From a virus: 64,000 bases of DNA. The notes under the pieces are model-generated. The model made no database searches, was not told where the DNA came from, and saw nothing but the letters and a program-made list of their open reading frames with translations. Position numbers and translations under genes: made by a program. The stretch lies in the IMG/VR virus record IMGVR_UViG_3300048837_000984, positions 64,001 to 128,000 of that record; one strand, 5' to 3'. Positions 1-41,486 of this stretch are shown piece after piece. The stretch's first letter is position 1. The number at the start of each line of letters is the position of its first letter.

Positions 1-3000
1 AGTAAGGACCCTGGTACAACCGGGCAGCTTCTTGACGACCTATATAGGCAGCGAAATCTCCGTGAAATAAGAAAGCCGCGCCGCACCTTTTCAAGCTGGC
101 TGAAAACAATCGCGCGGAAAACACGCCACCTGAAGAAAGAATCGCGCCTTTCATGATTCCTCCGTGTGTGCCGGCATAGCTGCTCCCTAAAAAAGGTACG
201 CATACCGGGAGTATCCGAGAACAGCTCCAGTAGAAAAAAAGCTGGGGGAGTCAAGCCTGGCAGCAGGCGGGTTTCGGTTAGTTATGGATCCGGACCGGTC
301 ATTGAGCACAGCTCTGTCTTGACGAACAACAATTCTCAGGTCGGCGAATCGCGCATACGGAAAGGTCAAGGAAGCTGGCATGTTTTACCCCTGCAGTAAA
401 CGGGCTCTGCGGCCCTTGCGCAAGTCAGCGTCGGCCAAACCTTTCAACATTGCGTCGCTATACCACAGACACCAGGCCCAGCCGTGATAAGACAACCAGG
501 CTCGAGAAGATAGCCATAGAGTGTTTGACCCGGGTACACAGACAACCAGGTATGCACTCATCTTCGCCTCCATTGACAGAGATGGGCTTGAAAGAGAAAG
601 TCCAGCGACGCTCGCTCAGACGGCCACTCACCGAAAAATAGCCGGGCCTCCTGTCCGGACAGTGAGGAAGCCCGCCAACAAAAGCTTAGCTCGGCAAAAG
701 AGCAGAACTGTCGATTGATCCTAAGGACTGCACTCATCTATGTGCTCCCGGCATGAGGTAGGCAGCTGAGATTTCTGAAAGACCGGCTCTAGCGTAGACT
801 TGTCTGTGCCCACACCAAATCCAGGCGCGGCAGTCAAACAGGTGCGCGTAGCCCCGTCCAAGCAGGGAAGCGACGGAGTATCTAAAGTGACCGATTCTCA
901 GTGTCGCTCGCATTAGCGATTTCCTTGCTGTAGATAGGCCTGGGACAGCCACATAAGATGCGCCCGCGAAAAAAATTGATTGGGACCGAACCAGAGGTAC
1001 GGTACACAAAGCCGAGCATGTGCATGGTACCGCCCCCGCAAAAGTGGTCGGTCGGCCGCTGAGAATGGACTCACACGAAGTGTTGCACCCATTAGAACCT
1101 CCACTGGTGAAGAAACGCAGTAAAACCGCTCGACGTCTTTGCAAAACAGGTGAGCTGGCTACTGCGCCTACCAAACCGCAGCCACGGGCCGGACCAGTTC
1201 GAAAGGGTTGCACAAAATTCGTCTCGGTGACACGCCTCGGCCGCGTAACGTCGTCCGAAACAGAGAAAAGCCATCTAGCCACCTACTCCTTAAGAAAGAT
1301 GCGCACGATAAGAGTGCGAAGCCTCGGCATCGCAGCAGCACCGGATAGGTCCGTACCAGAGCCAGCCTCGGTCCCACCAAGGCATAAGTGCGCCACAAAA
1401 AGAACTGAGTCTGGCCTGAAACTGGTACCGGACGCCTGGCTTGAGTATTGCTTTCATCCGAACCTCCACTGGTGAAGGAAGGCGTCGCACTCCAAGCCGA
1501 GCACGGCGCGACAATATACGTGGCGAGTACGCGAACACAGGAAAGCGCCACTCAAGTCACGCAACGCCGCGTCGTTGAATCCGTCATGAGAAGCTTCGGC
1601 GAGATAGTTGTTTGGGCCAAAGAACAGAAACGCCATCGTTAGCTCCAGTTCTCTTGGTTTAGGTGGGAATGAAGGCAGCCCGTCGGTACCTCTGCTGCCG
1701 CATAACCGCGCTGTATCTTTTCTTCACCAGAGCGCGCTGACAAAGCTCGAAGCTGCCCGAAGATAGCCAGGCAAAACCGTTGCGCTGGGCAAAGGCATGC
1801 GCCTGGAAATTGAGATAGGCCCTCCCAAGAGGGCCAGCCACATTGCATAGATACGCGGACATACCTATAACCTCCCGCGAACAAGTCTCGCAGCGCGGTT
1901 ACCACGCAAGATGCTACCACGCATGACGACACGGAACGAAACCCACGCAGCTGGGGTTCTTAGCCCCAGTCTGGCAGCGTAGTCGAGACCGATGTGAGCC
2001 CGAGCACGAAACGACGGAAAACCGGAGCGCCAGTAAACGAGAAAGGCGTTATCCACAATAGGACCCCCACTGTAACAAGTATGGGATGGCCGTGTGACCA
2101 ACCCAGGCCCGTGAGAGATGGATACGCCCGGACTGGAGCCAGGCAGACCTGTGTTGGTCCAGCCTGGCTCCGCAGCCCTGGTAGTAGCTTGAACCGAGAA
2201 CCGCGTGGTGCTGGGAAGAGATGTCCCAGTCGCTGTTGAAGATCGTTAAGACAGCTCCGTGCATAAAGTCATCCCCTGGTCAAGAAGTGCGACTGCCGAG
2301 TCGCCCAGATACGCTGCATAGAGCAGCCACGGGTATGCGCCGCACATGAAGGCCACACTGTCCCCATCGTGGAGGGCGCGGCAACAACCACCGAGGACGG
2401 CACCAGAGCCTTCCATGTCGTAGCGAAAAACGCCAGCGTAGCCGGAATAAGAAATAATGGCACCGGACATCAGAACAGCCTCCGCCTATGCCGAAGAATC
2501 GCCTGAGAGGCGTAGTTAGATATCGCTTGGCAACTAGGCAAGCCATACTTACCCGACCCAAGGAAGGCCTTGTTTCTGTACAGCGTTGTGTAGCGGCTGC
2601 GTGACAAACAAGCCCACGCCGAACGGTCATGAAACAGGAACGGGTAGTTGAACCTCTGATAGACAAGAAAAGCCCGACGCATTGTTAGTACCTCACCAGG
2701 AAAGCGCCCGGCCTTTTGTCGTCCAGGTTAGCTGCGGCGACTCTTTTTACCCAGCCGAAAGACATAACACAGCCGTGGACGTACCACAACCTGTTGAGGG
2801 AAGCTCCGACAATGGTAAGATTTGAAAGGACCGGTCGACTAGGTCCGTAAATAATCAGGCCAGTAAAACCGAGACTTGCAGTATTGTTTCTAACCAAGCC
2901 TGGCTCCAGGAAAGGTGTTTAGGGCTGCGCGAGACATGTAGCCGACTTTCCCCACCGGTCGGCGAATGTTGGCCTTTGCATCAACCCACGTGGGTCGTAG

Positions 3001-6000
3001 CGCAGCCTCAGTATTGACAGTGCGCGTCATGGCACGACTGCGATCAAAGTAGCGTGACCAGTTGAAGTAGCTTTGCCAAAGGTTGGCACAACACAATCCC
3101 ATGGACTCTCCTAGAAACGGAGGTTTGCGCAGGAAATATCAAACAGGGCGGCACCGTAGACGGAGTAGAGACCCTGGAACAGGCTGCTACTTAGCTGGAG
3201 GTGACCCTGGTGCAAACCTGCCAAGTCACAATACCGTCGAAGAATGGCGGAACTACAGATTCTACGTAAGGTGCCTGGGTAGTAAATGATTGCTGAGTGA
3301 CTCATCTAGGACAGATCCTCGCGCTTACAATCCACAAACCGTTAAGTCCGGTTGTGAATTTTGGAACATGGATGGCGCTGTTTACGGCCGGACCCTGGTA
3401 CAGGATCGCTCTCCTGAGACCGGGCCACGGCGTACGGGAATGGCGGTACAGCCGAGCGTCACAGCTCAGCTGCGTGTAATTCCCCCATCGGACTTCTCTG
3501 GTCAGGTAGGCTTTACTCATTTTCACCCCAGGTTTGTGCGAGCCTGCCTTACTAAGTAAGAAACTCGCACAGCCAAGTACGCGTTGTTCATTGTTGTCTG
3601 AGTTTCGCCTCATGTGAGTAGCGCGGAAAAACGCCCGTTATTGACCTAATAGCGCCACGCCGTCCGGCCGAAAGGAAACTTCGACACAATTGCCAGTGAA
3701 AGGCTGCGCCGAAACCACTCAGAAAGGCTCGCGAGTACGGAATATATCGCAACGTTGCAGCCACAGAAACTCCTACTGTTAGTCAAGGTAAGCCGCGCTG
3801 CGATGGTTGAGTCGGGCATTTGCCGCCAGACTGATCCAGGCCGCTGGGTACTTTTTACCGATGATCGCGCAGCTCCAGGTAAGAATCGCTCGACAGGAAA
3901 GGTAATTTAGACCGACCAGATAGGCACCCATACTACCTCCTTAACCCGAACTTTAGAACAGCTTCTGCCAGATATAACCCCAGGTAAGCCCGATGCCAGT
4001 TACTGCGCAAGTTGCTTTGCGCCGAATACCTTCGAGGCAGCTGGACAAGTATCGCGCGGCTACGAAACCACAAATTAGCTCGAGTCTGACACCAACCGCC
4101 ACGAAAGGGAGAATGCCTGGCAGCCATCATCACATCCTTAGAGTGGCATTTGTACGGTTGTTAAGGAACGGCCGACAGTTCTTGTATGTCCATCCCCAGC
4201 CCTGAGCCAGGTAAGTTCGACAGTGGTGTTGATGAGCTGCCGCAGCCCAGTGGTTAAGCGCAGCAAAGGCGCGGGCAAATCCGCCGCCCGTTAAGCAAGC
4301 ACGCAAGGGTCAGCTCCAGTCAATGAGGTAAGAAAAGGAATTACCGCTGAGCGCAGCTGAGGCTTTACGAAACAAGCTGTTGTGGAGCCAGGCCGCAGAC
4401 CTTCCGTGTCGTGGATAGGACCGTAACCCGTGTCGGAGAACGGCCTGGTTGGTAAACCAGCCGGGGAGTGAGTCGATAAAAGCCCCTGTACTCACAACCT
4501 TGCTCCGAAAAAGTGATTGAGGCGTGCCTGCGACTTCGTAAGCTGTCCGACTGTTTCGCCTTGTCGGAGGTTACTGACCAGGACAGCCCGACCCAACCAG
4601 GCTCCGGTTACCGGGGGCCAGCCCGTCAGGCGGGCTCGTGACTTTCTTGGATAAAGCCAGGCTCTGATCATAGGAAAGCACCCACTAAAAAATTAAGTCG
4701 TGGTCTAGCCCGCCAGTGCTTACCACATCTACCGGTGTAGACGAGGAAAGCATGAGAATTCGTTCTCGAGTACGCTCTAAACGCCAGAGAGTTACGGCGT
4801 TGGTCCGTCCGGAAAGCTTAGCACCCATTCCTTTGCCTCATGCTTGCGCGGAAAGAGAAAGGAAAGCAGATAGACGCCGCCCACTTTTTAGAGAAACCGT
4901 AGCTGAGGGCAGCCCGCCGGTAATGGCCGCAAATAGCTGCATACAGCGAGTTATGGAGGGCCTTAACGTTCGCCTTCAGTACGTTGGCCATCGGAAACCT
5001 CCCGGTTCGAGCCATGCAGTTGGGTGGACCTCGCTAAGAGAGGCCCGATAATGGAATGACCAGTCTTGCGAATCCAGCGTAACAAGGTAAGCGACACTCC
5101 TGTATCGATGCGAGGCGTAATTTTGTCCGGTCAGCCTGCAGCGGCTGAGACCACAAAGGATTGCAGAGTAGAATCGCATAGACACCTTTGTTAGATCCAT
5201 CCAGTCGGGTACAGCAAAGCCCGGCGGCTACCCGAAAGTCTGGGATAACACCTAAATATAGGACCCAAGCGGAGAAAAGCCCGGCGCCTGTAGCAAAGCC
5301 AGGCTCCCGGCTGATGGCCGCGATAGCAACTGGAATGACTGGGGACAGCCAATTTAGCTTCGGTCAAGTTGTTTACCCTGTTAGCGGCTCTGGACGCAAC
5401 GAGCCCCGATTCGCCAAAACCTCAAATACGCTGAAGAAACGCCACGCCAGTAACGGCTCTGGCAGTGATGGAGACCCGGCCGACAATGGGGATAGGCACC
5501 GAAACGGGTCCAGGCACGGCCAACCGTATACAGACTGGCACCGTGCGGCCAACTATTGAGTACAGCTCGGTTCACGTTAGTTATCCTCCGCGTTGTCTGG
5601 GTTCAATGTCGTCTTCGTGGAGCGCCAGCCGCGAGCCAGGCCGCAGACATATGCAACCCGCTCAAGTAAGCCTGACAGCGTAACCCACCGACATTCAGGT
5701 ATGCGTGTCTGCTTCCGTCAATCTGGGCGCGATACAGGTGACGGTTTAACCGGCTTCGATCAAACCGGCCGAGTAAAGCCGTGTGACGTACCATAGTGCC
5801 TCCAGCTAGGCTTAGTTAATCTGCCACAAGCAGGCCTGGTAGTTAAAGGTCAGCCGCGTGTAACACCGAAGCCTATATCCGAAGGCCAAAAACGCATGGC
5901 ATTCGGAGGGCAGGAGGGCTCCCGTTGCGTATCTGTACATACGAGCTCTGGATTTTCTTGACAGTCTAGCTGTGTTTAGCATTTCTTTTCCTATCCGACA

Positions 6001-8426
6001 GAATAGAACCCTAACCAAGCTCCAGACCGTACCACGTTGTCTCCTGAAGTATTAGAAGTTGAGTTCCGCATACCGAGAGGCAAGCAGCCATGGTCCGCCG
6101 ACATAAGGAGACTCGGTAACCAGGCCAGGAACACAACATCGCATAAGCCAGGCCCGAGGAAACTTGCTTCGCAGATAAGCCTGATTTCGACACAAAAACC
6201 GAAGACCGGCGCTGCTCATAGAATAGCCGCTCCTCTTTTGGAATTGAGTAAGGCACCGTAGCCGAACCAGAGACTCCAGGCTAATGGCCGTAAAACAGCC
6301 AGAGGGGTGTCCATGCGAAGTGCGCCCGGAAACCGCCCAGCCAGTCGAGGGTACGACCGACGGCGAAGTTTGGCTCGTTTCATTCCAGTAAGGCTCCGCT
6401 TCTTTTGTTGAGACAGGCCAAACACTCCCGATGCCAATAAGCAGAAGAATGTTTAATGGCAGCCCCTGACCAAGGCAAGACCGTCCGCAACCAGGCTGCG
6501 CCGAAGGTGCCAGACAGGTCTGCTCGATCAATACTTCCATATAAGAAAGCTCTGTTCATGCCAGGTGTGACCCCGTCTGAGGCTCGAGAAGGTAAGCGGC
6601 CGAGTACGCTCTGTTACGCCATCGTAAAATTTGGCAGCACAGCGCGCTGCTTCGAACCAGTCGCGTTCGAGGCCGGCTGTGAAACAACCAGGCTCGTGGG
6701 ACTATGCGATGCAAAACAGGACCGTAGGTCCACCGGCCGACTGTTGCAGTGTTCACCGCAGGTAAGCTCCATAAATAGACCGAAGGCCGGCTCGTTGTAC
6801 ACGTCGACCAGAATAATCCACGCAAGATGGTCGCCCGAAAAGTGCGTGCCGGCCCGCATAGCTGTAGCCAAACCAAAGCCAGGCGTTGGCAGTTCGCTCG
6901 CTCAACACGGCGCCTACGCAGGACCTGCAATTGTGCTGACGCAAGGATACGTTCATGCTATCTTCGCTCCTGTGACAGATGAACCCAGGACAGCTCCTTC
7001 CGATTGCCCGAGAGCTGCGCACGCCCAGCCAGAGTCTAACCAAGCTCGATGGAAAATAGAGAACTCGATGAAATGAATGGCAAAAACTCTTCGGTTAAGA
7101 AACGCTAACAGCTTACCACCTGCTCTTTCCGTGGCTTAAATCCGCATCGCGGCGGAATCGGTGAAGGGCGTAGACGAAGAAGTACTCAGGTCTGTACATA
7201 AGCCAAGGCCGAGATTCCAGCCCAAGAAGGGCCGAAGCAAATCCCGTTCGACTGCTTAGCAGAGCCATGTTTGTGCTGTTCAAAATTGCTTTGTTCATCT
7301 TACATGCCACTCCGGTTTTCCGGGGTACAGATACGCCTCTTGCTTGTCACAATGCAACGCCCCAAAAACCCGGTGGCTGCCTTGTCGCAGCGACGGATAC
7401 AACTTTCGACGAAGCATTGCGCCGCCTGTCCACCACGGAGATATGTGCAGAGAAGCAAGGTTCCACTGCTCGAGAAAGGCTCCACTCACGCTGCCCCCCA
7501 CCAGTAAGGACCGAAGCCGAAGAGCCGGGCCTCGTATAGAGCGCCGAGTGTTGCTCTCTGCGGGATAAATAAGTCCCTCTGAGCTCTGGCCGTACATCGC
7601 AGTCGCAAGAAGGCCGCACCGAAACTGAAACGCCAGCGGAGCCGGGCACCTTGCTGTCCAGATAAGTAAGCTCCCATCGCGTCACTCCCACAGATAGCAA
7701 CCGGGGCTCATGCAGGCCCCGACCCAATGATCGAGCCACGGAAAGGAGTAATTGAAGTAGAACCGTAGACAGGCTCTGTCTCGCCGAAACAAGACGGCTA
7801 AGCCGAAAAACTGACCGTATGCGCCTATAGCGCTCGAATAGCCCCGCAACCTGGCCGTATTCAACGTAACCTCCCTGCGGTCAGAAACGCTCCCGGGTTT
7901 TTTCGGTTAAACAAAATCCACGCCATACTCCAGCCAGTCTCACCGTGGGCCGCGTACGCCCAGGAAAGGCTGCCCAGGTGCGCCCGACACAGGCTGGAAA
8001 GCCATGTACGGGACTGACCTCTTGCTACGGCTCGATTCAATTTCATCTCCTTCCTCCTGAGAGCCAGGCCGCTTTGCGCCATACTGGAAGCCCGGACAAC
8101 ACGGGAACGATACAAACCGACCCCGACCGGAATCGGGCGTAACTGTCGCCGAACCATGCTCTGGGAAACCGCGAAAAATGCCGACTATGACCCTGAAGAA
8201 GATACGCGGCACAGAACCACATTTATCGACCCTCCTGAACGAGCCAGGCGCGGGTGGATTCCATCAAACGCGCTCCGGATCGCTTCAAAGGAGGCCGACC
8301 CGCAACTTGAAGTAACCTGGGCCATGTGAAGCCAAACCACCTAATGTTGGCTCTGGCGCTAGCAATAGCTGTGCGCCGGTTCAACATGGCTGAACACTGC
8401 CAGACTTTATGCAAAGCATGACTCAT
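1..8426 (-). other. Array of about 46 tandem, translationally coupled micro-ORFs (mostly 50-80 aa) with recurring (R/G/S/A)-A-x-(L/I) motif
   Basis: Manual tiling on the minus strand (approx.): <1-154, 187-381, 385-561, 558-737, 734-913, 913-1092, 1092-1274, 1290-1457, 1454-1636, 1659-1862, 1865-2055, 2049-2264, 2246-2470, 2470-2682, 2685-2897, 2890-3102, 3111-3305, 3302-3520, 3523-3591, 3588-3764, 3779-3931, 3933-4130, 4130-4306, 4310-4495, 4492-4671, 4668-4828 (frameshifted), 4818-4991, 4976-5179, 5191-5367, 5381-5575, 5603-5794, 5812-5982, 5991-6034, 6052-6219, 6216-6383, 6380-6559, 6556-6756, 6753-6956, 6953-7111, 7113-7298, 7295-7489, 7486-7677, 7682-7864, 7861-8046, 8043-8222, 8223-8426. 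Many ATGA/GTGA/TAATG overlaps and GGAG(G) RBS. Starts include MSAYL, MSAVL, MRATL, MGATL, MKAIL, MNRAFL, MGAYL. The array runs off the window edge. Confidence 0.8.
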
Positions 8427-8677
8427 ATAGTGCTCTCCAGAACCTCGACGGAGCTTTTCGGAGGGTAAAAGGTAAGGTTGTTATCGGAACCGAGGTAGAA
8501 CTCGTTCTTGTCATCAAAACCAGCTTCTCTGCCAGAGAGGTGAATATAACGGAACCAGACGGCGATATGTCCGCTGCTACTTGTCTCGACCCGGACAGCG
8601 TACCGATACTGGTAGCCGTCAAAGAAGGTATCTCCCTTCTGCAGATCCTCGACTTGCTTCCACACGACGAACTCCAA
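8423..8677 (-). CDS. hypothetical protein, leading gene of the micro-ORF operon
   Basis: 84 aa, ordinary globular composition, ATGA-coupled to the 8223-8426 micro-ORF. Confidence 0.7.
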   Translation of the reverse strand: MEFVVWKQVEDLQKGDTFFDGYQYRYAVRVETSSSGHIAVWFRYIHLSGREAGFDDKNEFYLGSDNNLTFYPPKSSVEVLESTI

Positions 8678-8682
8678 AAGAT

Positions 8683-8711
8683 AGGCCCGACTTAAAATTT
8701 AAGTCGGGCCT
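8683..8711. promoter_or_regulatory. 29-bp palindrome containing the ACTTAA-N3-TTAAGT motif
   Basis: AGGCCCGACTTAAA-A-TTTAAGTCGGGCCT, perfect 14-bp arms, just upstream of the micro-ORF operon. Confidence 0.6.
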
Positions 8712-8731
8712 CGCTAGGTAATCTGTTACCG

Positions 8732-9643
8732 CTAACTATTTCCGAGGACAAGATCTAGAGACCACATTCCTTTCCAGTGTCGGCCGGGTCTCCGGAGGTG
8801 TTTGAGGACTGGGTGCTCGATCTTACCGGTGCCAGCACAGTTCTGGCACCAGATGGAAATGCTTTCCGGCCAGCTGGCTGAACTTGCTGCACTTTTTCTG
8901 AACGTGTAGACAGTCGTTGGGAACCTTTCAACTTCGGCTGATGTGTAAGTCTGCTCACCTTTTCCGGCGCATTTTGGACAGGCGCCAGCTTCCAGACCAG
9001 CTTCCTCCAGAGCGTCTGAAAGAATCGCTAGTCGGTCCGGATCCAGACAGCCGGTAGACAGTTGTGTTGAATAGGCCGTCCTGGCCAGGTCGAGAACTGT
9101 ATCAGTAACGATCGGCGATAGCTTCGTGCCACGCCCACTGCAGGCTTTGCAACGCAAGCGAAGATTTCGGTGTGGAACCGCGCCACCGGCACCGGCAGGA
9201 ACAGTGCCCTTACCTCGACACTTCTTACATTTATCGCCCGGCGGTAAGGCAACCGGCGCCTCTGGATATCGCACGATATCTCTGATGACGTCGGGGACCA
9301 CTCGCCTCTGATTCTCAGTACAACTAAACGACTGTCGAAAGGAGTCTACAGCGGAAGCAATGGTCGCCCAGTACGCGCGTGTCTTAGCGGGTGCCATGAA
9401 CTTCTCTACGGTCGCCCAGGACGATCCGTCGGCCAACATTTCTGCGGCTGTACCGAGCGTGTTTTTGTGTACGGTGCCTTCTGAAGACAGCAACCGAACA
9501 GCTGCCGCGGCGATCAGTCGCATCTGTCTTTCTGTGATCCTGAAAGGCTCTTCGGGTGCAGTTAGCCCCGTCGGATCGCGTTGTGTGAGCCAGTGGTAGA
9601 GCTCGTCTGGGTTCTTGCAGGCCAGCCACTCTGCTTCTGTCAT
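8732..9643 (-). CDS. Gemmataceae-type paralog-family protein with two CxxCxGxG Zn-ribbon inserts
   Basis: Starts MTEAEWLACKNP; LAILSDALEEAG; ends HLRRPGRHWKGMWSLDLVLGNS; start reassigned to the ATGA-coupled ATG at 9643. Confidence 0.8.
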   Translation of the reverse strand: MTEAEWLACKNPDELYHWLTQRDPTGLTAPEEPFRITERQMRLIAAAAVRLLSSEGTVHKNTLGTAAEMLADGSSWATVEKFMAPAKTRAYWATIASAVDSFRQSFSCTENQRRVVPDVIRDIVRYPEAPVALPPGDKCKKCRGKGTVPAGAGGAVPHRNLRLRCKACSGRGTKLSPIVTDTVLDLARTAYSTQLSTGCLDPDRLAILSDALEEAGLEAGACPKCAGKGEQTYTSAEVERFPTTVYTFRKSAASSASWPESISIWCQNCAGTGKIEHPVLKHLRRPGRHWKGMWSLDLVLGNS

Positions 9644-37480: not shown

Positions 37481-37511
37481 GGTCACTACCTCAGAGTTGC
37501 GAAGGGGAAAT

Positions 37512-37584
37512 GTGTAGCTGCCGGAGTTGAACCGACTTCTCCAGGGGTTTATGAGCCCCTCATGGTACCGACCACCCAACTACA
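37512..37584 (-). tRNA. degenerate tRNA-like gene, anticodon CAT, 8-nt anticodon loop
   Basis: Acceptor TGTAGTT/AGCTACA, D stem GTGG/CCAT, anticodon stem AGGGG/CCCCT with loop CTCATAAA, T arm GTCGG-TTCAACT-CCGGC. Confidence 0.65.
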
Positions 37585-37630
37585 CACGGACAGCAGGTCA
37601 CCCCCATAGCAGCGCCTGCTGTCGCCTAGC

Positions 37631-38589: not shown

Positions 38590-40078
38590 TCACCTCAAAC
38601 AAATCAGAGCACCACAGGAACGACTCAAAACCGCCACAGCAGAAAGATAGGGGTCCGGCATTAGCACAGACCCAGCCATAGAGAAACGACCTCGACCGCT
38701 ACTAGCCCACGCCAGCCAGAACCAGTTTGGACTACCGGCCCCGTGCCACAGGCGTGTGCCAGATAGCCCTGCTTTCAGAACCATTCTTCACCACGCAAGT
38801 AAGCTCCACTGAGCTTGCGTAGTCTCGCCGTCGCGGAAAATGCCAGCAACGGAAAGTATGCAAACGGTGAATGAACTAGAAAGGCCCTGTCTTCTTGAGC
38901 AGGACCTAGCCAATCCCAAACTCGGTCCGACCACTTGTTTGGTCTAGACAGGCTAGCTATATAACGCCGGTTCGCGGTCGCCCGGAAATTGTCGCGAAGG
39001 AAAGCACTCAATAATGGTTCCTCCTTTGCAGTAAGTTAGCTGTGTATTTATGGCGAAGTGTTGCAGCCGGTTCGTCCCAGCCTTCACCGCATAGAAACTG
39101 ACCGGCAAGTGGTAACTCGAGTCCGCCAAAAAGCCAGGCACGCCAAAAGTAGAGAAAGACGCCGGCACGCGGCAGCTCGGCGCCACTATTTCCTGCACAC
39201 ATAATCATCGTACGTATCCCAGCCTTGCACGGTGTTTTCCCCGTAAATTGGCAGTACAACCCCAGGGTGTAGCGGGTAATCGATAGGGATGATCGCGGTT
39301 GGGGTAACAGCCTAACAAGGCCCTGCAGCCCGACGGAAAACCGGTGGCATGGTAAACCGGCCAAAAGATGCGACCGATCACTGCAAACGGAAACTGACCC
39401 GCCATGTAGGCGCGCCCGTCGTAGTTGAGCAGGGCACTCATACGGGCCACCTCCAGACTTTTTGATACAAACGTGCGGTGAACCTGCCGCGCAGCATAGC
39501 ACTAGGTTCTCTGTCCTCGCCGTACCACAGAAAAGGGCCAGCAATGGGTATAAGACCGTCATGCACAAGCCATGTCCGCCATGGACAGAAAGATGCCAGC
39601 CGGTGCTTCATAGAGGCGCCGGTTGTGTTTCCCGAGGATAAACGCATAGTTCCCTCTAGATGCTGGCTACGCACCAACCGTCGAGTTTTGCCGCGTGTCC
39701 AACTGTCGGGATCCGGCGAGTTTCAAAATAAACCAGACAGGCGTGACTACCAGACGTGATGTCAGAAAAAAAGAATATCCGCAACGAAATCCGACCCAGG
39801 GTGGCTCGAGGGAACGAACCACTCAGGGTCGCCGCTTCGGACAACCCAAGGTAAGCTTTCACGGGGCCTCCTCACACGAGCTGCTCTAGCCGCGCTCGGC
39901 AATGCAAATACATGAAGCCGAGCCTACGCGGTCCCGCAAACGCTCTACCGTAGGACTTGTCCCAAACCAGAGACGCGGATTGTGTGTAGTAACGCGGGTA
40001 CATGACCGCAAAGGTGAGGTCATGTAGGTTGGCACCGCAAAAGGCATGAAACTCCCCTTGCCATAGCCAGGTGCTCAA
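38590..40078 (-). other. second cluster of x-A-x-L micro-ORFs (7 genes)
   Basis: 38590-38784, 38775-39011, 39008-39208, 39205-39450, 39438-39647, 39656-39862, 39872-40078; MSAFL, MKAYL, RAFL, GAYL, RAWL, TANL, GANL; coupled. Confidence 0.7.
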
Positions 40079-40881: not shown

Positions 40882-41486
40882 TTAGTTACCGAGTCGTGCG
40901 TCCGACCTGGCTCGCGATTTCGCGACACAGAAGAGCTTGATAACGGGATCGACGGCGATCTTGGCACCCGACCCGTTGCGCTGTTGCTTGAGCGCTTTTT
41001 TAAGTGCTGTCTCACCCAGTCGAGCCAGGCTGTTGGCATTCGAGCCGTGAACGGGAACGATCGTCACCATCTTCTTCTCCTTTGCATGGTACTTCTCAGT
41101 CCTCGTATTGACAGAGTTTAGCTGCTGAGAAGTAGTTCAGAATCGTAAGAAAGTTGTCTTCGTAATCAGCGCCAGGGAACAGAATCGGATTGTTCCACAT
41201 GTGTCCCCACACTCTAGCGCCAGAGTGACGACGCAGACTGGCACTCCGGCCGATTCGGCGACCAATGTTGAGTATCGTACCCAGGTACTGGATTCCGTCT
41301 CCCTGACAGAGCTTAGCTTTGTACACGTGACTCCTATCCGGGCCAAAGAGTCGCTCGGTAGCGTCCGCCGAGTTCGGCCGCGTTATTCAGGTGATAGGCA
41401 CCGAACCGCCACCAAGGTGTGAACATAGCTGGCCGGTTTAGGAAAGACGGAGCGCAGTAAGCAAAATCGTAATAGGGAATTATCAA
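40882..41486 (-). other. third cluster of x-A-x-L micro-ORFs (3 genes)
   Basis: About 41334-41486 (GAYH, RATL; TTGA-coupled), 41096-41326 (KAKL, SASL, AAKL), 40882-41070 (LARL, DARL). Confidence 0.5.

Follow-up and report, generated by a model that had tools for sequence, protein, structure and literature searches.

Putative micro-genes of extreme divergence tiled along one strand of a 12.9-kb array in an uncultured freshwater phage

Tandem arrays of short orphan genes are already known from several large phages, including (i) the crAss-like phages, which carry blocks of short genes (PMC7886860), and (ii) phage G and 121Q, which display arrays of more than 30 similar genes with copies described as 'very similar' (PMC5646251). 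Roles in host interaction are suspected for such arrays. A related arrangement is found in the stretch analysed here (the window), 64,000 nucleotides corresponding to bases 64,001-128,000 of the 193,694-bp IMG/VR virus record IMGVR_UViG_3300048837_000984, which bears direct terminal repeats and derives from an uncultured freshwater phage of 194 kb. As in the other large-phage arrays, the locus comprises dozens of short, closely packed, same-strand open reading frames (ORFs) in a genome of ~200 kb, with no homologues outside the lineage. Nevertheless, compared to phage G and 121Q, its units bear no resemblance as DNA and hardly any as protein apart from a three-residue motif, A-x-L, and it departs from other small-gene arrays by a near-random, Arg- and aromatic-rich, acid-poor composition and by a degenerate, putatively strand-forming unit of 8 residues. 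The favoured reading, to which a probability of roughly 55% is given as a whole, is a translated micro-gene family with a strand scaffold, made as a basic peptide pool.

The array stands out at the level of the whole genome. The minus strand of the phage holds the overwhelming share of long open frames, and a genome-wide composition scan discloses a single long anomaly, at ~59.5-72.4 kb, mostly without minus-strand frames of at least 120 codons and with an A-poor minus strand (A 0.15-0.21, T 0.24-0.28). A dynamic-programming chain of minus-strand ORFs resolves this region into 62 tiled ORFs of 47-96 codons (median 65.5), running from window position 8426 to -4466 (genome 72,426-59,535), 12.9 kb in length and about 7% of the 194-kb genome. 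The window part (1-8426, minus strand) comprises 42 complete ORFs and one straddling the window start, and the array extends 4.47 kb before the window (genome 59,535-64,000). An initial annotation, made from the window's sequence, had described about 46 ORFs in positions 1-8426 and an array of at least 8.4 kb; the count was slightly high, and the length is that of the window's share only. Both flanks encode small proteins of normal, acidic composition. The array is interrupted by just three gaps of 67-69 nt each, which suggests a single long late transcript; one of them (3521-3587, minus strand) includes a GC-rich hairpin of 8 bp that lacks a T-run and might serve in RNA processing or as a pause site.

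The translation signals of the array were compared with those of 60 dinucleotide-preserving shuffles of its DNA. The near-gapless one-strand tiling, the stop/start coupling and the GGAG ribosome-binding sites pointed out in the initial annotation, which had proposed shuffled sequence as the reference for the coupling, all lie far above these controls: (i) ORF coverage is 0.963 compared to 0.70±0.05; (ii) junctions of -20 to +5 nt number 44 compared to 8.7±2.6; (iii) ATGA/TGATG-type overlaps (-4/-1) number 25 compared to 2.8±1.4; (iv) strong Shine-Dalgarno (SD) sequences, GGAG/GAGG or better, number 46 compared to 4.9±1.9; and (v) ATG starts number 44 compared to 12±2.8. Read on its plus strand, this DNA resembles a shuffle. 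The ORFs use all three frames in alternation, and their signals equal or exceed those of the phage's ordinary genes, with a strong SD in 74% versus ~55% and an ATG start in 71% versus ~52%. Most of these frames had been expected to escape annotation, and the calls of the Joint Genome Institute (JGI) indeed capture such genes poorly: on an identical contig (L009:10763-16719) they include about a dozen small same-strand genes and three opposite-strand frames of 57, 206 and 81 aa.

The encoded peptides share a motif confined to the ORF frame. A-x-L occurs 232 times in that frame compared to 54±6 expected from residue shuffling within peptides, whereas the other five frames, the comparison suggested at the outset, show no comparable excess (observed/expected 41/30, 39/29, 15/14, 58/44 and 14/21). 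Three to six A-x-[LI] motifs are present in 58 of the 62 ORFs, and the N-terminus reads M-x(0-3)-A-x-[LI], with the first motif starting at residue 2-7, in 55 of them; both traits had been recognized from the start. The motif Leu is encoded by CTN in 70% and TTR in 18% of cases, with Ile as substitute in 11%, which, together with the lack of DNA similarity, agrees with the earlier view that conservation is not at the DNA level and places it at the codon or protein level. The extended motif is S/C-R/G-A-x-L-x-x-G: Ser (50/259) and Cys (28/259) occupy position -2, Arg (61/261), Gly (42/261) and Ser (27/261) occupy position -1, the β-formers Ile, Trp, Tyr and Val are enriched at +1, and Gly follows at +5 and the next Ala at +8. 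The spacing between motifs shows a floor of ~8 residues and a mode of 8 (38 of 199 neighbouring pairs), followed by 12, 16-17 and 20; of the range of roughly 5-15 residues first proposed, the part below 8 is almost absent. Autocorrelation of Ala with Ala and of Leu with Leu is depleted at distances 3-7 and peaks at 8 with weak harmonics, and the pairs other than those at exactly 8 lie mostly 9-50 residues apart, so that the octad run is not continuous. The family consensus comprises five A-x-L positions, the central one often A-W-L, and after the last motif there usually comes x-[QPH]-[GW]-R, encoded by codons that include the GGAG of the next gene. As a test for a protease site, avoidance of A-x-L was sought in the rest of the phage proteome and was not seen (observed/expected 1.18).

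These observations bear on a non-coding origin, in which an array of structured RNA or protein-binding DNA sites would carry ORFs only incidentally. The composition, unlike that of ordinary coding sequence, would suit such an array. On the other hand, RNA folding in 200-nt windows yields a mean z of -0.18±1.04, no better than shuffles and compared to -1.04 in ordinary coding regions, no tRNA or Rfam family is found in the array region, Tandem Repeats Finder reports no tandem repeats in positions 1-9000, and the only element that recurs keeps to the codon phase, its middle codon being free and its Leu codons mixed. A non-coding array is accordingly scarcely credible.

The divergence among units is extreme. 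BLASTN detects no DNA similarity among them beyond trivial overlaps arising from unit excision, the best protein pairs are 42-44% identical, a level at which synonymous sites between paralogues are saturated, and the mean column identity of the family alignment is 11%. With no DNA similarity and at most 44% protein identity, ORF length, starts and motif phase have survived saturating divergence. Because only selection on translation and on a motif locked to the codon phase explains the signals, the lengths and the phase after such divergence, the array very probably represents a real, translated gene family, as the initial annotation had supposed and as the shuffles and the frame-specific motif indicate.

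That annotation had also proposed a 'diversified' peptide library, whose peptides might serve as decoys, as protease substrates, in nucleic-acid binding or against host defence. The term implies active diversification, which finds no counterpart, since no reverse transcriptase (PF00078) is encoded in the genome, in a search in which positive controls matched, and no DNA similarity links the units; for the same reasons, the divergence is explained just as well by ancient duplication and subsequent drift to saturation, with a minimal scaffold as the constraint. The peptides might still be targets of a diversity-generating retroelement (DGR) or precursors of ribosomally synthesized and post-translationally modified peptides (RiPPs), that is, substrates of a dedicated diversification or modification machine, a possibility that suits numerous short, variable peptides sharing a brief constant N-terminus. 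Besides the missing reverse transcriptase, no template-like DNA repeat occurs between units, the constant N-terminus spans ~3 residues with no leader, and no modifying-enzyme family was found in a check that covered the flanking genes tested rather than the whole genome, making this origin extremely improbable.

The matches outside the phage are octad-repeat proteins. A 62-member profile was searched against 1.84 billion representative proteins, where ~36 bits are needed and the family's own members score 15-44, so that diverged arrays elsewhere would mostly be missed. Eleven matches were returned, two of which are the phage's own frames and six of which (P0001, P0003, P0004, P0008, P0009 and P0011, from other genomes) are proteins of 280-350 aa with 15-20 perfect octads, (G/E/D)(N/S)S(R/S)A(V/E/D)L(R/W), at E values of 4e-7 to 3e-4. 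Three of these six match the C-terminal domain DUF7666 (PF24703), which the papers searched do not mention; the octad family itself, exemplified by the repeat N-S-S-A-V-L-R-G, is apparently unnamed. DUF7666 has no match in the phage, but the control genomes gave none either, and the array members are too short for this 95-residue domain. The model of one octad protein (predicted local distance difference test score, pLDDT, 85.7) displays a 4-residue strand every 8 residues, and VIA-align matches it to right-handed β-solenoids, including TibA (Z 17.9), Ag43 (15.7), a beta-helical antifreeze protein (15.7) and CsgA (13.4), whereas Foldseek against the PDB returns nothing at E <= 0.001. In other phage-like proteins, therefore, the S-x-A-x-L octad is predicted from this model to form a solenoid rung.

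The two groups share S-x-A-x-L with Arg or Ser before Ala, a period of 8, and Arg or Trp after Leu. The octad proteins differ as single long proteins whose repeats are perfectly regular, which have globular domains at both termini and which contain many acidic residues, whereas the array members, of ~65 aa, contain 3-6 irregularly spaced units and no extra domain. Each array member thus looks like a few degenerate octad rungs, by homology or by convergence, and the peptides probably share a β-strand octad scaffold. The same match, together with the alternation of the ORFs among three frames, could also indicate the wreck of one or a few giant octad β-solenoid genes of fibre or adhesin type, broken by frameshifts and stops. 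Each fragment would then have had to gain an SD and a start near the preceding stop (46 strong SDs against 4.9 expected). The narrow length range, the first motif at residues 2-7 in 55/62 ORFs, the discontinuous octad periodicity, the failure of TGA or TAG readthrough to give a long gene and the identity of the sequence in four assemblies all speak against it as well, and such a wreck is very improbable.

Beyond these proteins, no described family accounts for the members, in agreement with the initial annotation: neither Pfam nor PHROG gives a match. Resemblance of single units to pentapeptide repeats had been noted, and units of the A-D-L-S-G type do occur; the motif as a whole, however, is a degenerate 8-residue unit, apparently strand plus turn, and not a pentapeptide. 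PF00805 matches none of the 62 members at E <= 1 and nothing in a six-frame search of the genome, in which 9 of 14 control genomes match, and only 2 of 199 neighbouring motif pairs lie 5 residues apart. Searches for relatives were equally negative, including (i) megablast against GenBank phages with the array and with a structural stretch of 15 kb as queries; (ii) a search through flanking or conserved genes in IMG/VR; (iii) a word-based protein search with the family alignment; and (iv) the family hidden Markov model (HMM) against 401 Planctomycetota genomes and five chosen metagenome-assembled genomes (MAGs), with no positive control outside the phage. Stop-codon recoding was also considered and rejected, with a maximum ORF of 292 aa when TGA is read as Trp and nothing long when TAG is read as Gln.

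Compared to external databases, the phage itself is richer in relatives, with 49 matches of the family HMM in its own genome and the family present at three loci, the array and two others holding at least eight further copies. A second cluster of six members (38590-40078, minus strand), supported by HMM matches and carrying 2-6 A-x-[LI] each, shows positive AT skew, and its coding strand is A-poor with the same A/T skew as the array. Its members, all on the minus strand, lie at 38590-38784, 38775-39011, 39205-39450, 39438-39677, 39656-39862 and 39872-40078, with a motif-less 62-codon frame (39008-39198) between the second and the third. Two further members, also on the minus strand (41096-41326 and 41334-41486), are separated from this cluster by an ordinary 260-aa gene, and a detached copy lies outside the window at genome 58,603-58,809. 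ARAGORN calls a tRNA of undetermined identity at 37511-37585 (minus strand), its anticodon (cata) having four bases. The call, which overlaps the beginning of a frame of 247 codons and is not reproduced by the Rfam tRNA model at its gathering score, may be spurious or mark an unusual tRNA.

Contigs from three further JGI samples match this genome at 100% identity and so add no variation; these make four assemblies in all, which indicates that the array is not an assembly artefact. Population variants were taken from low-depth contigs of two other metagenome runs holding parts of the stretch; the sequencing runs listed as holding it include no RNA run. The 18 listed variants within array ORFs comprise 9 synonymous and 9 non-synonymous changes and no stops, compared to a neutral synonymous expectation of 25-31% (P 0.02-0.07). 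One member (6753-6956, minus strand) carries five differences in a second metagenome, at 6777, 6780, 6786, 6801 and 6804, all of them third-position and synonymous. This synonymous excess, from a small sample of partly linked sites, is suggestive.

The composition of the peptides is as unusual as their arrangement. Measured against the long ORFs of the phage, the family is enriched in Cys (2.6x), Trp (2.2x), Tyr (1.8x) and Arg (1.7x) and depleted in Asp (0.41x), Lys (0.35x) and Glu (0.28x), bearing out the early description of an Arg/Trp/Cys-rich, Asp/Glu-poor family. The peptides are strongly basic, with a median isoelectric point (pI) of 10.4, a median net charge of +6.5 and a pI above 9 in 51 of 62. 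At non-motif positions, Tyr (2.15x), Trp (2.0x), Phe (1.74x), Asn (1.64x) and Arg (1.24x) exceed the expectation from local base composition, with Val, Ile and Leu (~0.6x), Pro (0.63x) and Glu (0.65x) falling below it. The residues outside the motif had been called nearly random, which is fair for the near-neutral composition overall but not for the excess of Tyr, Trp, Phe and Arg.

The array is preceded by a putative transcription unit boundary. An acidic gene of 80 codons (8423-8665, minus strand), without a Pfam or PHROG match, shares 4 nt with the first array ORF. It opens the unit that follows a very strong terminator-like hairpin (8683-8711, minus strand; 13-bp stem, 3-nt loop, T-rich tail), located between the array operon and a 235-aa gene, P0012 (8732-9439, minus strand). 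The latter has a zinc-finger segment (CXXCXGXG) and matches Q-like antiterminator PHROGs weakly, and the layout of this gene and the hairpin resembles lambda Q and tR'. In two smaller related phages, homologues of P0012 immediately precede the terminase and portal genes, and the two contexts of homologues that were read (L003 and L005) contain ordinary small genes and no array. In addition, the P0012 family is multicopy in Planctomycetota and Gemmataceae MAGs (18 loci, L013-L030, several per genome), and this distribution hints at a planctomycete host. Downstream of the array, small ordinary genes are followed by (i) a 1,057-aa SET + 2H-phosphoesterase protein (L012:14386-17559, genome 54,386-57,559, minus strand) and (ii) a 2,510-aa fused RNA polymerase β-β' with two LAGLIDADG inteins (L012:485-8017, genome 40,485-48,017, minus strand). 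Multidomain proteins of this kind have been proposed to be packaged and injected (PMC5512222).

According to the favoured reading, the alternating small residue, Ala and Leu of each unit would face one side of a short β-strand, much as in a solenoid rung. Only these strand residues and the translation signals would be held by selection, and the other positions would have drifted to saturation, with Tyr, Trp, Phe and Arg favoured and Val, Ile, Leu, Pro and Glu disfavoured. The array would form one long polycistron, starting after the Q-like regulator gene and a strong terminator and running into genes of the packaged-and-injected kind, such as those of the SET + 2H protein and the fused RNA polymerase. 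The peptides would then be made late and in bulk, as a heterogeneous pool residing on nucleic acid or in the capsid interior, with M-x(0-3)-A-x-L as a candidate N-terminal tag. The analogy with the T-even internal proteins and the Arg/aromatic composition suggest this destination, and a packaged or nucleic-acid-associated, late-made pool is put forward tentatively, as the doubtful part of the proposal.

Several observations weigh against this reading. Translation is predicted from the sequence, and the link to capsid or nucleic acid is drawn from composition and gene neighbourhood only. The codon-position base composition is nearly flat, without the RNY-type signature of ordinary genes (the phage's long ORFs, for contrast, have G1 0.36 and A2 0.29), and overall amino-acid use approximates a random translation of an A-poor strand. 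Because the A/T skew of the array strand (-0.156) equals that at third codon positions elsewhere in the genome (-0.157), most array positions may be nearly neutral, close to mutational equilibrium. AlphaFold, applied to one member with 61 paralogues, gives an all-β but weak model (pLDDT 64, predicted template modelling score 0.33), and a protein language model, queried through ESM Atlas look-alikes, does not see a member as protein-like and offers no usable match. The variant sample is tiny and comes from low-depth contigs, its five third-position changes forming one linked cluster; the match to the octad proteins could be convergence of a simple repeat; and the internal recurrence of A-x-L would be superfluous in a tag that served N-terminal targeting alone.

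The flat codon-position composition, near-random amino-acid use and neutral-like skew are what would be expected of translated filler or a timer, where the act of transcribing and translating 13 kb is selected and the peptides are by-products, whether to shield a long leader from Rho termination and decay, to delay downstream genes by minutes or to fill a headful capsid. The lack of relatives and of a recognisable fold, the position of the array, which follows a terminator and heads a long transcription unit on one strand, and the proposal of tandem duplication as a route of jumbo phage genome growth (PMC5646251) also count for it. Nevertheless, a frame-locked A-x-L with a spacing rule, β-formers at +1 and an aromatic enrichment would all be needless in filler. 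The copies at two other loci, dispersed among ordinary genes, argue against a mere single spacer, the synonymous excess among variants speaks weakly in the same direction, and filler is considered unlikely.

A repertoire of specific binders or inhibitors, serving anti-defence or host takeover, would instead combine the strand scaffold with a member-specific surface for each host target. It is consistent with extreme divergence on a fixed scaffold, with the small size of the products in a block of short orphan genes, with the anti-CRISPRs suspected in the short-gene blocks of crAss-like phages (PMC7886860) and with the conflict-type multidomain protein nearby (PMC5512222). Such a repertoire appears rather unlikely, given variable positions of near-neutral composition, a member model without a confident fold (pLDDT 64), no orthologues at hand for member-specific conservation, and as many as sixty-two targets.

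An extension of the favoured reading holds that heterogeneity itself is the selected trait, with ~70 Arg/Tyr/Trp/Phe-rich peptides bearing S-x-A-x-L rungs co-assembling into a mixed matrix. This matrix would form by rung stacking between unlike chains or by condensation with nucleic acid, and could coat DNA inside the capsid or act as the scaffold of a viral factory. With no dominant sequence in the matrix, runaway homotypic amyloid would be avoided and host proteases and defence sensors would meet no fixed target. The idea is regarded as quite improbable.

The array offers a natural example in which selection appears to keep the property of being translated and a minimal strand scaffold, leaving nearly all other residues free. 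It bears on (i) the minimal sequence constraint of a functional peptide family; (ii) the way in which genes of this type escape gene finders and protein language models; and (iii) the use of tandem small-gene arrays in several unrelated large-phage lineages. Should the peptides turn out to be capsid cargo or a nucleic-acid matrix, the array would represent a new type of component of the virion or factory. If selection acts on translation as such, it would amount to a new device of regulation, and if heterogeneity is the selected trait, it would illustrate a new viral way to build a material from a gene array that selection keeps open with most residues drifting.

Three known systems come close at the level of the peptides. 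The pentapeptide-repeat proteins (PF00805), with their A-[DN]-L-x-x quadrilateral β-helix, likewise place a small residue and a Leu two positions apart, which would face the interior, whereas the array has a spacing floor of 8, a free middle residue instead of Asp or Asn, and a basic instead of acidic character. Curli-type CsgA and other stacking short β-solenoid subunits share imperfect strand-turn repeats in a small protein, and CsgA is found among the structural matches of the octad model (Z 13.4), not of the array members, which have no sequence relation to it, no secretion signal and a different repeat length; polymerisation of the array peptides is hypothetical. The T-even internal proteins (IPI, IPII, IPIII and the polymorphic ip loci) are small, basic and diverse, carry a short N-terminal tag, and are made late, packaged with DNA and injected (PMC3012670). 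The array peptides are likewise small, basic and highly diverse, although T4 has three internal proteins compared to 62 array members. The T4 capsid targeting sequence comprises ~10 residues and ends at a protease site, whereas the array shares M-x(0-3)-A-x-[LI] in 55/62 members, with the motif recurring internally. In addition, IPI* has a compact, defined fold. For the array peptides, packaging is hypothetical. Besides these likenesses, what is new in this locus is its extreme divergence, its near-neutral composition and a minimal octad scaffold linked to an unnamed solenoid repeat family.

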